Positions 1,148 through 54,600 of a stretch of DNA of 64,000 nt are shown here, in pieces. Positions within the stretch are counted from its first letter, which is position 1, and each line of letters begins with the position of its first letter. Both the position numbers and the translations under genes were made by a program. The DNA is from an uncultured delta proteobacterium (GTDB lineage Bacteria; Myxococcota_A; Polyangia; Palsa-1104), in the NCBI GenBank assembly GCA_963785725.1, contig CAWAWS010000007.1:211186-275185 (forward strand), in the 5' to 3' direction. A model generated the notes under the pieces. It saw nothing but the letters and a program-made list of their open reading frames with translations, did no database searches and was not told the DNA's origin.

Positions 1148-3126
1148 GTGCGCATCCGCGACCGGCTCGAACGCGTGGTGGACATTCGGCCCGGCGAAGG
1201 CGTCCGCACGATATTGATGTTTTTTACCGTTTTGCTGCTCATCGCGTCCTACACGATGACCAAAGCCGTACGCGACGCGGTCTTCCTCGAGCACTTCGGC
1301 CTCACGCAGCTCAGCTACATGATGATCGGCATCGCGGTCGTCGCCGGCATCTTCGTCAGCGCCTACAAGCGCCTCACCGCCGGCCGCCCGCGCAGCTTGG
1401 TCGCGCTCTTCACCAACAGCATCATCGCGCTCACGCTCGTCGCCATGGCCATCGGCCTCGAGCACGACGTGCAGTGGATTTCGTGGGGCCTCTATTTTTG
1501 GTCCGCCGTCTTCGGCCTCGTCCTCGTCGCCGATTTCTGGCTGCTCGCCAACGACCTCTTCGACGCGCGCGAAGCCAAGCGCCTCTTTCCTATCATCGGC
1601 TCGGGCGCGATCTTGGGCGGCTTCTTTGGCGGTGCGCTCGCCGGCTGGCTCGCCAAGCCGCTGGGCGCGCCGCGCCTCTTGTACCTCGTCGCCGCCGCGC
1701 TCGTCGGCGCCGCGCTCTTGTCGAACGTCGCCTGGCGCTATCGCCGCGCCGACGTGCAGCGCGAGGTCAAGAACGCGCCGCGGGCCAAGCTCTCGGACGG
1801 CTTCGCCATCTTGCGCGAGAACCGCTACGTGCAGCTGATCGCGGGAATCCTTTTGTGCATGACGGTCTGCTACACGATCGTGCAGTGGCAATACAAAGGC
1901 ATCGCCAAGATCCACTTTGGCTCGCACCGCGACGACATGACGGCGTTCTTCGGCACCTTTGCCGCCGTCTTGAACTTGGGGACGTTCGTGCTGCAGGTGC
2001 TGGGCACGCCGCGGCTCTTGCGTCGCTGGGGCGTCGGCTTCGGCCTGCGCGTCTTGCCGAGCGGCATCGGCCTGGGCGCGCTCTTGCTCCTGACGACGGC
2101 CGTGTTGCCGCTGCCGATGCTGGCCGCGGCCGCGACGGCGATGCTGCTCTGCGACGGCTTCCGCTTCTCCGTCGACAAAGCGTCGACCGAGCTGCTCTAC
2201 CTGCCGATCTCGCGCGCCGTGAAAGATCGCGCCAAGCCGTTCATCGACACCTTCGTCGACCGCTTTGCCGGCGCGCTGGCGAGCTTTCTGTGGCTGTTCT
2301 TGACGTTCGTGTTCCACATCGATCGCCCCGATCGCATCGTGTTCGCGTCGCTGTTGACCTTGGCGGTAGCCGCGGTGTGGATGGTGCTCGTCGGCCACGC
2401 GCGTAAAGCCTACGTCGCGGCCTATCGCGAGATGCTGGCGATGTCGCAAAAGGACGCGCCGCTGCCGGCGATCGCGCCGGCGCACGTGGATCGGCGGCTG
2501 CAGGAGCGCGTCATCGCCGAAGTCGGCAAGCTGACGACGAACGACGCGGACGACGACAAGCGGCTGCAGGCGATCGCGCGCCTGGCGCGCAAGACGCCCG
2601 ATCTGGCGCTGCCCGTCGCGCCGCTCGTGCCGGCGCTGCTGCGCGAGGCCGAGCTGGTCCAGCGGCTGGCGCTGGCGCTGCAAGCGGCGACGGCAAATTC
2701 GGACGCGACGAAGCAGCCGAAGTCGCTGTTGGCGAGCCTGCTGCAGGTGCGGCTGCGCGTGGCCTTGCGTCGGCTGTTCGATCTGTTGGCGCTGTCGTAT
2801 CCGGCCGGCGACGTGCGCGCGGCCGAGGCGGCGATCGTGGCCGAGTCCAACGCGGCGCGCGCCGGCGCCCTCGAGCTGCTCGATAACGTCATTCGCGGCG
2901 CGCATCGGCGTCCGCTGCTCGACGCGCTGGAGTCGGTCGTGCTGCCGCGGCGCGGCCCGGCGCCCGATCGTGCGGCGACGCTGGCGGCGCTGTTCGATCT
3001 GCACGAACCGGCGCTGCGTCGCGAGCTGACGAGAGCCGCGCGCGCCGAAGGCGTCGCCATCGCCGACGTCAGCGAGCCCGAGGAAGAGGCCGCCGTCGCC
3101 GACGCCGAGGGCGCGCCGGCGGTGGT

Positions 3127-18391: not shown

Positions 18392-18395
<4 letters not shown>
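18027..18395 (-). CDS. PilZ domain protein
   Basis: RARRVPINEEF...EYVADISSTGVFIKSKDPLPVGTRVNLKFSL...GMGVAF matches the PilZ pattern RxxxR ... D/NxSxxG. GTG start at 18395 overlaps the rng stop (GTGA). Its stop overlaps the J-domain gene's ATG (ATGA). Confidence 0.7.
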
Positions 18396-19961
<1,566 letters not shown>

Positions 19962-20125
19962 GTTTCATCCAATCTCTAGAAGCAGAGTCTATGCAAAAAG
20001 TTTCGCGCCCCATCGTGAATCAGGACTCGGATGTCAGAGCGATCGGAGGGCGCAACCGTGATCGCCCTATTCGGGTAACACGTTAAGCCGCGTCGAACAA
20101 GCGTTTTACCGTCTTCGCCGTAGGG

Positions 20126-20141
20126 TGGCACATGCGTTGCT
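20126..20141 (+). promoter_or_regulatory. sigma-54 (-24/-12) promoter
   Basis: TGGCACATGCGTTGCT is an exact match to TGGCAC-N5-TTGCW. It sits in a 398-bp lower-GC intergenic region. An inverted repeat GCGATC-N15-GATCGC (20039-20065) about 75 bp upstream could be an activator site. Confidence 0.6.
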
Positions 20142-20151
20142 CTACACCCTG

Positions 20152-20316
20152 GCAATTGCAGCTTCGTTCGGGCGTTATTCTCGACTAACTCCGCCCGGGC
20201 GTAAGCGAATTCTTAGCCGCAGTCGCGTAGCAGCAACCTGCGATCTATTTCCTAGTTTGCTTTCTAGTTTGGGAGCCCTGGCGGGTCGGACCACTCGCCG
20301 GGGCTCACTCATTTTT
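20152..20316 (+). ncRNA. candidate sigma-54-dependent small RNA or 5' leader (about 165 nt)
   Basis: Bounded by the sigma-54 promoter (TSS predicted near 20152) and the hairpin plus T-run ending at 20316. GC is lower than in the coding flanks. It contains no credible ORF. Confidence 0.4.
20273..20316 (+). terminator. putative intrinsic terminator
   Basis: GAGCCCTGGCG (20273-83) pairs with CGCCGGGGCTC (20296-306): 11 bp including one G-U. It is followed by ACTCATTTTT. The T-run is offset 5 nt from the stem. Confidence 0.45.
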
Positions 20317-20359
20317 GGGGCTCGCGTTTGTGCCGCGGCTTGATAAGGTCCGCGGCCAC

Positions 20360-21328
20360 ATGCGAATCCTTCTGACTGGCGCGACCGGCTTTGTGGGCTC
20401 GCACGTGGCGCGGGCATTGGTGGCGGCGGGGCATCAGGTTCGCGCGCTGGCGCGGCCGACGTCTTCGCGGGCGCTGCTCGACGACGTGCCCGAGCTCGAG
20501 TGGGTGACCGGCGACGTCATGGACTCGCCGTCGCTGACGGCGGCCGTGCGCGATCGCGAGGCGGTGGTGCACGCGGCGGCGGTCGTCGGCTTCTCGCCGC
20601 GCGCGGCCGAGCGGCAGCGCGCCATCAACGTCGAAGGCACGCGCCGCCTCATCGACGCGGCCAAAGCGGCGGGCGTGCAGCGCTTCGTGCACACGTCGTC
20701 GGTGTCGGCGGTCGGCAAGACGCCCGAAGGCTCGATCTCCGACGAGACGGCGCGCTACGACTGGCCGCCGGGCATGCCCTACAACGAGACCAAGCGCGAC
20801 TCCGAGCGGCTGGTGCAGAAGACCGAAGGGCTGACGACGATCTGCTTGAGCCCGGCCTTGGTGTTCGGCCCCGGCGACGTCTTCAAGCGCACGCTGGGCC
20901 TGTTTCGGCTGGTGAAGTGGGGCCTATTGCCGGTCGTGCCGCCGGGCGGAACGACGATCTGCGACGTGCGCGACGTGGCCGAAGCGCACGTGAGCGCGCT
21001 GACGCAGGGAGAATCGGGCCAGCGCTACATTCTCGGCGGTCCGCACCTGACGTTCCGCCAGCTGGCGACGACGGTGGCGGAAGTGACCGGCGGGGCGCGG
21101 CCGTTGGCGGCGTTGCCGGCGAGCGTCGTGCACGCCGTCGAGGTGCCGCTGGCGGCGATCGGGCGCTTCTTGCCGCTGCCCGTCGGCGTCGGCACGCTCG
21201 AATATCTGACGAACTTCGGCTATTACGCGTCGGCGAAGGCGGAAGCGGCGCTCGGCTATCGCACGCGCGCCGCCGCCGAGACGCTCGCCGATTCCGCGCG
21301 CTGGTACGGCGCGCAAGGCGTGCTGTAA
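20360..21328 (+). CDS. NAD-dependent epimerase/dehydratase family (extended SDR) protein
   Basis: MRILLTGATGFVGSHVARAL (GxxGxxG). YNETK matches the catalytic YxxxK. Confidence 0.8.
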   Translation: MRILLTGATGFVGSHVARALVAAGHQVRALARPTSSRALLDDVPELEWVTGDVMDSPSLTAAVRDREAVVHAAAVVGFSPRAAERQRAINVEGTRRLIDAAKAAGVQRFVHTSSVSAVGKTPEGSISDETARYDWPPGMPYNETKRDSERLVQKTEGLTTICLSPALVFGPGDVFKRTLGLFRLVKWGLLPVVPPGGTTICDVRDVAEAHVSALTQGESGQRYILGGPHLTFRQLATTVAEVTGGARPLAALPASVVHAVEVPLAAIGRFLPLPVGVGTLEYLTNFGYYASAKAEAALGYRTRAAAETLADSARWYGAQGVL

Positions 21329-53166: not shown

Positions 53167-53230
53167 GTCGCGCGTCGCTCCGCCGTCGCGGCCAGCAAAC
53201 CGCTCAGGTAGCAGATGGAACGAAAAAAGG

Positions 53231-53314
53231 TGGCTCCGGGCACCCGCGCCGCTAACTACCGTTGCTCCCTTCCGGGCCTGGCGGGGTTCGTCGGCATTGC
53301 GTCGCCCAGAGCCA
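53231..53314 (-). ncRNA. ffs: signal recognition particle RNA (small/4.5S type)
   Basis: The minus strand contains CCAGGCCCGGAAGGGAGCAACGG, matching the universal domain IV motif (E. coli CAGGUCCGGAAGGAAGCAGCC). The flanks GGCUCUGGGCGACGC and GCGCGGGUGCCCGGAGCC pair with each other. It is followed by CCUUUUUU. It sits directly upstream of dnaX, as in many bacteria. Ends are approximate. Confidence 0.75.
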
Positions 53315-53393
53315 AAACTGGTCTACCACAAATCCAAAGCCGCAAACGATGTAGCACACTTCTCGTTACGGCCAAGCGATCCGTTGAAACTTA

Positions 53394-53482
<89 letters not shown>

Positions 53483-53561
53483 AACAAACTTGTGCGGCGC
53501 CACCAACCGCGACTTCCTCTGCTCTGCTCTGATTCCGTCGGAGGGAGAGGTTGGAGCGGAG

Positions 53562-53662
53562 GGTTTGGGCCCCGCGCGCAGTTCCGCAGGAGTTGTTTTT
53601 CGTGTTCGCGCAGCGAACGCGAAAAACGGCTCCGAGGACTGTTTGAGCACGGGGCCCAAACC
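53562..53662. repeat. 101-bp nested palindromic element between two tRNA-Ser genes
   Basis: Outer stem GGTTTGGGCCCCG (53562-74) pairs with CGGGGCCCAAACC (53650-62), 13 bp perfect. Inner hairpin 53595-53609 with 53613-53627, 15 bp (one T-G position), 3-nt loop. Confidence 0.8.
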
Positions 53663-53673
53663 CGGAGCGACAG

Positions 53674-53762
53674 CGGAGAGGGAGGGATTCGAACCCCCGG
53701 TACCCTTGCGGGTACACCTGATTTCGAATCAGGCGCAATCGACCGGACTCTGCCACCTCTCC
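53674..53762 (-). tRNA. tRNA-Ser (anticodon CGA)
   Basis: GGAGAGGTGGCAGAGTCCGGTCGATTGCGCCTGATTCGAAATCAGG...GGGTTCGAATCCCTCCCTCTCCG. Anticodon loop TTCGAAA. Confidence 0.92.
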
Positions 53763-53805
53763 AGGTGGTGCGAACGCAAAATACGGCGTCGAAACCGTAC
53801 GAAAA

Positions 53806-54276
53806 TCAACTCGATCGCTTGCGTAACTGGGCGAAGAAGTCGGTCAGCAGGGCGCCACATTCGGCTGCCAACGCGCTCTGCTCGACGACAACTTGGTGGT
53901 TCAAGCGGGGATCTTCCAAGAGGCGGTAGAGCGTTCGTACCGCGCCGGCCTTCGGGTTGTCACAGCCGAAGACGACCCTGTCGATGCGGGCGTTGACGAT
54001 CGCGCCCGCGCACATCGGACAGGGCTCTTGCGTCACATACAGCGTGGCGCCGACCAAGCGCCAACCGGCGACGGCTTTGGCCGCCTCGCGGATGGCGATG
54101 AGCTCCGCGTGTGCCGTCGGATCGGCGGCACTTTCACGGCGATTTCCGCCGCGACCCAAGACGACTCCGTCGACCACGATCACGGCGCCGACGGGCACTT
54201 CGCCCATCTCCGCCGCCGTCTTGGCCTCGGCGATCGCCAACTGCATGAGCTGCTCTTCTACAGGTACAAGCGTCAT
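53806..54276 (-). CDS. tadA: tRNA-specific adenosine deaminase
   Basis: CMP/dCMP deaminase zinc motifs HAELIAIREA and PCPMCAGAI. 156 aa. Confidence 0.92.
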   Translation of the reverse strand: MTLVPVEEQLMQLAIAEAKTAAEMGEVPVGAVIVVDGVVLGRGGNRRESAADPTAHAELIAIREAAKAVAGWRLVGATLYVTQEPCPMCAGAIVNARIDRVVFGCDNPKAGAVRTLYRLLEDPRLNHQVVVEQSALAAECGALLTDFFAQLRKRSS

Positions 54277-54289
54277 TTTCGAACTGCGG

Positions 54290-54363
54290 CGCAGCCAGAA
54301 GGATTCGAACCTCCGACCCTCGGTTCCGTAGACCGATGCTCTATCCAGCTGAGCTATGGCTGC
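54290..54363 (-). tRNA. tRNA-Arg (anticodon ACG)
   Basis: GCAGCCATAGCTCAGCTGGATAGAGCATCGGTCTACGGAACCGAGGGTCGGAGGTTCGAATCCTTCTGGCTGCG. Anticodon loop CTACGGA. Confidence 0.92.
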
Positions 54364-54390
54364 ATAATCTAATGCTTATTTTATTACCAG

Positions 54391-54477
54391 CGGAGAGGGA
54401 GGGATTCGAACCCTCGATACAGTTTCCCGTATGCCGCCTTAGCAAGGCGGTGCCTTCGGCCACTCGGCCACCTCTCC
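54391..54477 (-). tRNA. tRNA-Ser (anticodon GCU)
   Basis: GGAGAGGTGGCCGAGTGGCCGAAGGCACCGCCTTGCTAAGGCGG...GGGTTCGAATCCCTCCCTCTCCG. Anticodon loop TTGCTAA. Confidence 0.92.
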
Positions 54478-54517
54478 GATGAATGCTCGCGCATGTCGCT
54501 ATTCGATTGTCAGACCG

Positions 54518-54600
54518 CGGAGGGAGAGGGATTCGAACCCCCGGGACTTTCATCCAGCGGTTTTCAAGACCGCCGCCTTAAACCGCTCGGCCATCCCTCC
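54518..54600 (-). tRNA. tRNA-Ser (anticodon UGA)
   Basis: GGAGGGATGGCCGAGCGGTTTAAGGCGGCGGTCTTGAAAACCGC...GGGGGTTCGAATCCCTCTCCCTCCG. Anticodon loop CTTGAAA. Confidence 0.9.

Follow-up and report, generated by a model that had tools for sequence, protein, structure and literature searches.

A predicted sigma-54-dependent small RNA gene divergent from the RNase G gene rng in Polyangia-like bacteria

We take Qrr1-5 (LuxO), GlmY/GlmZ (GlrR), CrcZ/CrcY (CbrB) and NrsZ (NtrC) to be the proteobacterial sigma-54-dependent small RNAs with which a new candidate of this type should be compared. All are RNA genes standing on their own, in which a -24/-12 promoter is combined with an activator site further upstream and with an intrinsic terminator. 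Motifs or stem-loops recur within CrcZ and NrsZ, which are modular RNAs, and several genes of this type adjoin the gene of their activator. In Myxococcota, to our knowledge, very few regulatory RNAs have been found, Pxr being the only well-studied one, and we know of no regulatory RNA described from the Polyangia-like, largely uncultured lineages. Polyangia-like bacteria encode dozens of sigma-54 activators, the targets of which are mostly unknown.

Pxr of Myxococcus xanthus and other Cystobacterineae is a small non-coding RNA of 108 nt with several stem-loops, an apparent sigma-54 promoter and an upstream enhancer region; it always lies between the activator gene nla19/pxrR and a NADH dehydrogenase gene, and it has been reported from the suborder Cystobacterineae only (PMC5568312, PMC5684412). 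A literature search for sigma-54 small RNAs in myxobacteria, Sorangium and Deltaproteobacteria returned only the Pxr work and unrelated papers.

The RNA predicted here resembles Pxr in being a Myxococcota small RNA with a sigma-54 promoter and several stem-loops, but rng is its divergent neighbour, no activator gene adjoins it, and the genomes that carry it are Polyangia-like. The nla19/pxrR and NADH dehydrogenase context was not found, the neighbours being rng and an SDR gene. Judged by genomic context and published description, Pxr appears to be the closest analogue rather than a relative. With Qrr, GlmY, CrcZ and NrsZ the RNA shares the promoter-terminator architecture, and the variable module number and the CUUA(A/G) words of its family resemble the modularity of CrcZ and NrsZ. 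Unlike these RNAs it is not beside an activator gene, and no sequence or Rfam relationship to them was found; where CrcZ carries A-rich Hfq/Crc motifs, the family described here has the CUUA(A/G) word.

The window, by which we mean the whole 64-kb stretch of DNA that was analysed, contains a gap of 398 bp between the start of rng (19961, minus strand) and the ATG of the SDR gene (20360). Pfam identifies the two bordering genes as RNase_E_G (rng) and Epimerase/3Beta_HSD (SDR). The GC content of the gap is 57-59%, as compared with 69-76% in the SDR gene and 67% over the window, so that the gap is indeed less GC-rich than its coding flanks, as had been noted initially. An independent short-read assembly (L001, Logan ERR11630394) is identical to the window over the compared part (19902-20420), and the gap sequence is therefore no assembly artefact. 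The rng gene itself is broken in the window by a 1-nt insertion at ~19205-19215, judging from alignment to the intact 523-aa gene of locus L170. In four related ENA assemblies (L162, L163, L166 and L169) rng is also split, at other positions, for which reason the splits look like assembly indel errors rather than a pseudogene. The features discussed below are as follows.

18392-19961, minus strand: rng (RNase G), the constant neighbour of the RNA, with the Pfam RNase_E_G match spread over two ORFs.
20022-20037, no strand assigned: palindrome of the TGACA-N4-TGTCA type, in the window AGGACTCGGATGTCAG; candidate activator site or rng operator.
20039-20065, no strand assigned: dyad GCGATC-N15-GATCGC.
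20072-20100, minus strand: promoter-like box for rng (TTGTTC, 17 nt, TACCCG), of inferred promoter role.
20126-20141, plus strand: sigma-54 (-24/-12) promoter TGGCAC-ATGCG-TTGCT, TGGCACATGCGTTGCT, an exact match to the consensus TGGCAC-N5-TTGCW.
20152-20316, plus strand: predicted non-coding RNA of ~165 nt, bounded by the inferred start and the last base of the T-run.
20168-20198, plus strand: conserved stem-loop with a 7-bp GC stem (UCGGGCG/CGCCCGG) and a 17-nt C/U/A-rich loop, UUAUUCUCGACUAACUC.
20222-20232, plus strand: block GUCGCGUAGCA, predicted to be mostly unpaired; candidate seed.
20262-20272, plus strand: block UUCUAGUUUGG, immediately upstream of the terminator; candidate seed, or candidate stretch for binding a protein.
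20273-20316, plus strand: terminator, made up of the hairpin 20273-20306, the spacer ACUCA and the U-run 20312-20316.
20360-21328, plus strand: NAD-dependent epimerase/SDR gene (Pfam), a variable neighbour outside the RNA unit.
27022/27076-28461: sigma-54 activator gene (Sigma54_activat, 4e-70), 7 kb from the RNA.

Related loci were collected from GTDB genomes and JGI metagenomes with the N-terminal 268 residues of RNase G as the query, and further loci were obtained by tracing single protein relatives to their contigs. Many of the closest RNase G relatives (80-91% identity) had no traceable contig, which makes the covariation sample smaller. In all, 17 loci carry the element: the window, L002, L003, L007, L082, L083, L084, L099 and L162-L170. 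They belong to uncultured, Polyangia-like metagenome genomes, and the closest named genomes are metagenome-assembled records labelled 'Polyangia bacterium' and 'Myxococcales bacterium', so that the window too probably stems from an uncultured myxobacterium of this kind. For L007, L084, L099, L165 and L166, membership rests on position, promoter, terminator and short motifs.

The initial annotation had pointed to an exact sigma-54 consensus at 20126-20141 on the plus strand. It is present there, with the promoter GG at 20127-20128, the GC at 20139-20140 and a predicted start at ~20152. Over both strands of the 64 kb, TGGCACATGCGTTGCT is the sole match to TGGCACNNNNNTTGCW, against 0.05 expected from shuffles, and it remains the sole match when one mismatch is allowed, against 1.29 expected. 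Among the first 81 loci fetched, the strict pattern was matched four times, in L001 (the duplicate of the window), L002, L003 and L007, in every case upstream of rng and directed away from it; elsewhere in these 81 loci it had no matches.

A -24/-12 motif occurs in the same place and orientation, pointing away from rng, in 16 of 16 further loci, and its distance from the rng start is 145-251 nt across loci. The GG-N10-GC core is invariant in the 17 loci, and the full TGGCAC-N5-TTGCT is found in the window and in 11 of the 16 others; the variants include TGGCAT (L099), TGGCCC (L084) and CGGCAC..CTTGCT (L165 and L166). The N5 spacers vary by locus (ATGCG, AAGCC, GCGGT, GTTCA, ATGGG, ATCGG, ATCAC and others), which indicates that the promoter is conserved by selection and not just through recent common descent. 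The motif is absent from other Myxococcota rng loci (Nannocystaceae, Plesiocystis and L085) and from the other 'delta-proteobacterial' rng loci examined.

The second half of the predicted unit, a GC-rich hairpin at 20273-20306 followed by a T-run, was also found by the terminator scan where the initial annotation had placed it; the hairpin has 14 pairs, 10 of them G-C, and a 6-nt loop, and is followed by ACTCATTTTT. A GC hairpin with a T-run lies 135-404 nt downstream of the motif in all 14 further loci that are not cut by a contig end, giving a predicted unit length of 135-404 nt among the relatives. Between subgroups the hairpin sequences are unrelated (GACGGCCTGCC...GGCGGGCCGTTTCTGTTTT in L002, AAACCCCCC...GGGGGGTTTCTTTTTT in L007 and GACCCCCGC...GCGGGGGTCGTTTTT in L165), and the GC hairpin and T-run are kept at the equivalent place. 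Within the closest subgroup (six sequences), 97% of the terminator-helix cells are paired, with wobble changes and one compensatory change, from C-G to A-U, in L170. The five bases that separate stem and T-run in the window are not ideal for an intrinsic terminator, and because of this distance termination in the window may be leaky, with read-through into the SDR gene that starts 44 nt further on.

Could motif and hairpin be chance matches in an ordinary spacer, or could the region encode a small protein? A single consensus match appeared in 5 of 100 shuffles, the terminator scan gave two sites in the 1-kb region where 0.8 were expected, and a 72-aa ORF, which is not conserved, overlaps the region in the window. 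We nevertheless regard this explanation as very improbable, since every further locus has the motif in the same position and orientation in spite of diverged flanks, followed by a terminator wherever the contig is long enough. The coding variant was rejected: no ORF in the RNA region is conserved across loci, as the initial annotation had supposed in finding no credible ORF there, the longest ORFs are short and different at each locus, and between close relatives the frames are disrupted by indels that are not a multiple of 3 nt in length.

The gene beyond the terminator is visible in 13 loci and lies out of view, at a contig edge, in four (L007, L082, L163 and L167). It is convergent with the RNA in 8 of these 13 loci, and its identity changes from locus to locus: adh_short in L002 and L083, PTPS in L084, an ORF in L099 that has no Pfam match, a short unassigned ORF in L164, cdsA in L165 and L166, and an S8 peptidase gene in L169. 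In the remaining five loci it is co-directional, being the SDR gene in the window, L162, L168 and L170 and an aldehyde dehydrogenase gene in L003. The SDR gene is thus adjacent in only 4 of the 13 informative loci, and the constant neighbour of the unit is rng, not the SDR gene. The initial annotation had set a small RNA against a simple 5' UTR promoter of the SDR gene, and this variation in the downstream gene, together with its convergent orientation in most loci, speaks for the former.

The competing explanation, that the sigma-54 promoter is the SDR gene's own and 20152-20359 a long structured leader with the hairpin as an attenuator, deserves some attention in the window, where the RNA lies upstream of a co-directional metabolic gene and ends in a terminator-like hairpin, as attenuator and riboswitch leaders do. 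It is consistent with the co-directional SDR gene 27-44 nt past the T-run in the window, L162, L168 and L170, with the failure to find a convincing sigma-70 promoter between T-run and SDR gene, and with the gap between stem and U-run, which suggests imperfect termination. A leader, however, would be expected to travel with its own gene, and this RNA stays with the divergent rng; linkage to the SDR gene is not constant, and L003 has an unrelated aldehyde dehydrogenase gene in the co-directional position. Moreover, a transcript that meets the 3' end of a convergent gene cannot be the leader of that gene. Because the gene beyond the terminator varies and is mostly convergent, we consider a leader function unlikely; transcription may still run on into the SDR gene as a by-product.

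Two minor observations concern the start of the SDR gene in these loci. There is no clear ribosome-binding site between the T-run and the SDR ATG of the window (20317-20359, that is, in the 44 nt after the T-run), and the hexamer 10 nt before this ATG is TAAGGT, with TAGGCT or TAGTGT in L162 and L168. It may be that the SDR mRNA has hardly any leader, or that it relies in part on read-through.

We therefore return to the reading in which 20126-20316 is an independent non-coding RNA gene driven by sigma-54, which, going by sequence comparison, is probably the correct one. Promoter and terminator are kept together while the spacer, the RNA body and the downstream gene change, which argues for a free-standing unit, and the comparison of promoters in 17 loci, and of terminators in those not cut by a contig end, supports the original proposal of a free-standing ~165-nt sigma-54 small RNA ending before the SDR gene.

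The window RNA (20152-20316) has a predicted folding energy of -64.5 kcal/mol (z = -3.3), and none of 200 shuffles was as stable. It contains the conserved stem-loop at 20168-20198, common to 10 loci with the loop form CUAYUYUCGACUAAGCC. The stem CGGGCG/CGCCCG becomes CAAGCG/CGCTTG in L002 and L083 and CGGCG/CGCCG in L003. In the alignment of the 10 sequences, 98% of the cells are paired and two of the six core-stem pairs change on both sides (G-C to A-U or C-G); the score was reached by none of 500 shuffles, and slid registers all scored far lower. The compensatory changes that the initial annotation had proposed looking for in an alignment are thus present in two pairs of the core stem-loop, in addition to the one in the terminator. 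Covariation from samples as small as these (10 and 6 sequences) is supportive of the predicted structure, not conclusive.

R1, a covariance model built on the core stem-loop, reaches 51.8 bits at 20163-20202 of the window. Over the window and 168 loci (1.1 Mb) it recovered only its own 10 training sequences; it found no second copy in the window and did not detect L007, L084, L099, L165 or L166. Conservation of the RNA body is poor outside the closest subgroup. Within this subgroup (six sequences), two further blocks stand out as candidate seeds: GUCGCGUAGCA is invariant except for one base in L164, with variable flanks, and within UUCUAGUUUGG the stretch CUAGUUUG is invariant, the flanking bases varying in L163 and L170.

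On the side of rng, the best-conserved element apart from the promoter is the palindrome, which is present with its 4-nt spacing between rng and the sigma-54 promoter in 17 of 17 loci. In the window its left half is degenerate and the core GAC-N6-GTC is intact. Compensatory changes in the palindrome are absent across the loci, which points to a DNA site for protein binding. In 13 of the 17 loci the palindrome precedes the -24 element by 83-105 nt, a normal spacing for an activator site, and in most loci 47-68 nt separate it from the rng start. Since its spacing to the rng start is about as regular as that to the promoter, the palindrome may serve rng, the RNA, or both.

The dyad GCGATC-N15-GATCGC, which the initial annotation had offered as a plausible activator site, is present at 20039-20065. 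It is kept in L162, L163, L164 and L167, where the sequence and length (N13-15) of its spacer vary; it has drifted to GCGACC in L168 and to GCGGCC in L170, and it is absent from L169 and from the more distant loci. The dyad as such thus stands, and the proposed role is weakened by its being kept only in the closest relatives; judging by conservation, the palindrome is the better candidate activator site. Between the dyad and the sigma-54 motif there is a conserved promoter-like box. Should this box be the promoter of rng, the dyad would fall at the very start of the rng leader and could equally be an operator or a hairpin in the 5' part of the mRNA.

The box, of the form TTGNNN-N17/18-TAC, is kept in the window, L002, L003, L082, L083, L084 and L162-L170. 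Its distance from the rng start is roughly constant at 85-120 nt (window, L002, L003, L082 and L084), and that to the sigma-54 motif ranges between 22 and 100 nt. The last base of the -10-like part is C or G, not T, which makes any sigma-factor assignment tentative. In the rng leader we also noted a conserved block, TATGCAAAAAGTT (19990-20002, minus strand), which in relatives makes up a palindrome of its own, GCAAAAAGTTGC. Two features are restricted to one or two loci: L082 (~240-275) has three tandem copies of GGTTGACCCC, not seen in other loci, ~20-55 nt upstream of its sigma-54 motif, and only L167 (~175-195) and L168 (~750-770) have a perfect hairpin GACCGCC-loop-GGCGGTC inserted in the rng leader.

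The presence of a sigma-54 activator gene in the window, also mentioned at the outset, was confirmed by Pfam. A relative of this activator with 79% identity occurs in the L170 locus, where the whole gene order is as in the window. The candidate connection between this gene, at 27 kb, and the RNA was rejected, as the linkage recurs only in the fully syntenic L170 and is uninformative.

From these elements the following course of events can be proposed. RNA polymerase containing sigma-54 would bind the -24/-12 element TGGCAC-N5-TTGCT, and an ATP-dependent enhancer-binding activator bound ~100 bp upstream, for which the palindrome at 20022-20037 is the best candidate site, would remodel the polymerase at 20126-20141. 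Transcription would then run from ~20152 and end at the hairpin and U-run (20273-20316), the exact ends being approximate predictions. Most likely the RNA would act in trans, pairing with mRNAs through the exposed loop and the unpaired blocks in the manner of other sigma-54-dependent small RNAs. If so, this conserved RNA would be a concrete output for the signalling pathway of one sigma-54 activator.

The RNA remains linked to rng down to ~57% RNase G identity, the other flank being rearranged, and this fixed position raises the possibility of a link to RNA turnover. One version is that the RNA and rng form a single module, in which one regulator at the shared palindrome switches between rng and the RNA, or an activator bound there turns on the sigma-54 RNA from within the rng leader DNA, and/or the RNA serves as a decoy, substrate or regulator of RNase G or of its mRNA leader. 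Besides the linkage, such a tie is favoured by the palindrome kept between the divergent units in all 17 loci and by a comparison of the RNA with the rng translation-start region, in which same-sense shared words (longest shared words, summed) reached 82 as compared with 71 +/- 3.4 in mononucleotide shuffles (p ~0.015). The same-sense signal, however, comes from two loci under a lenient null model, and the linkage is explicable by inheritance alone if breakpoints fall after the terminator. Nor was there an excess of antisense complementarity between RNA and rng leader (p = 0.5), and unrestricted duplex energies were no better than those of shuffles. We consider a functional tie to RNase G doubtful for these reasons; if it were true, the module would represent signal-dependent control of a core ribonuclease in a myxobacterial lineage.

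The words that drive the same-sense signal are GACTAAGCC in L164 and CTTAGCCTCA in L165; CTAGGAA is shared in L169. The RNA body was compared with the 45 nt that precede the rng start, and the sharing is weaker in the window, L168 and L169. Pairing of the RNA with the rng leader was rejected as a mode of action, the duplex energies being like those of shuffles and the longest complementary words showing no excess.

The small RNA reading also receives a family dimension from the variable part of the transcripts. L169 has both the core stem-loop and a module consisting of CCUCCUCC, a hairpin and CCUAG, which is common to L169, L165 and L166, the latter two having no core stem-loop. Because L169 combines the core stem-loop with the module of L165 and L166, RNA modules appear to have been gained and lost within the family. 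A family in which promoter and terminator stay fixed and the RNA body, with lengths of 135 to 404 nt, turns over fast is useful for the study of small RNA evolution. As an additional observation, the CCUCCUCC(C) run followed by the hairpin and CCUAG lies at ~2740-2790 in L165, ~2750-2800 in L166 and ~2700-2780 (minus strand) in L169; the run looks like the 16S rRNA end with which ribosome-binding sites pair, and the window RNA is without this module.

CUUA is the most over-represented 4-mer of the family RNAs (29 observed against 10.3 expected, z = 5.3), and CUUAG and CUUAA are likewise enriched across the family, with many copies in L007 (404 nt; 119-547) and L099 (306 nt; 1913-2243). The window RNA holds a single CUUAG, and the enrichment is not counted as evidence for the window. 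The CUUA(A/G) repeats recall the repeated-motif architecture of protein-sponge RNAs.

The search against Rfam that had been suggested for this region gave no match to any Rfam 15 family: there was no relevant hit in the scan of the window, none in the region even at E up to 10, and none for 14 related loci at gathering thresholds. The sequences collected here thus point to a putative sigma-54-type small RNA family beside rng that is previously undescribed and has no Rfam relation. In the same window, Rfam models (56-66 bits) identified five tRNA genes and a small SRP RNA clustered at 53225-54600 on the minus strand.
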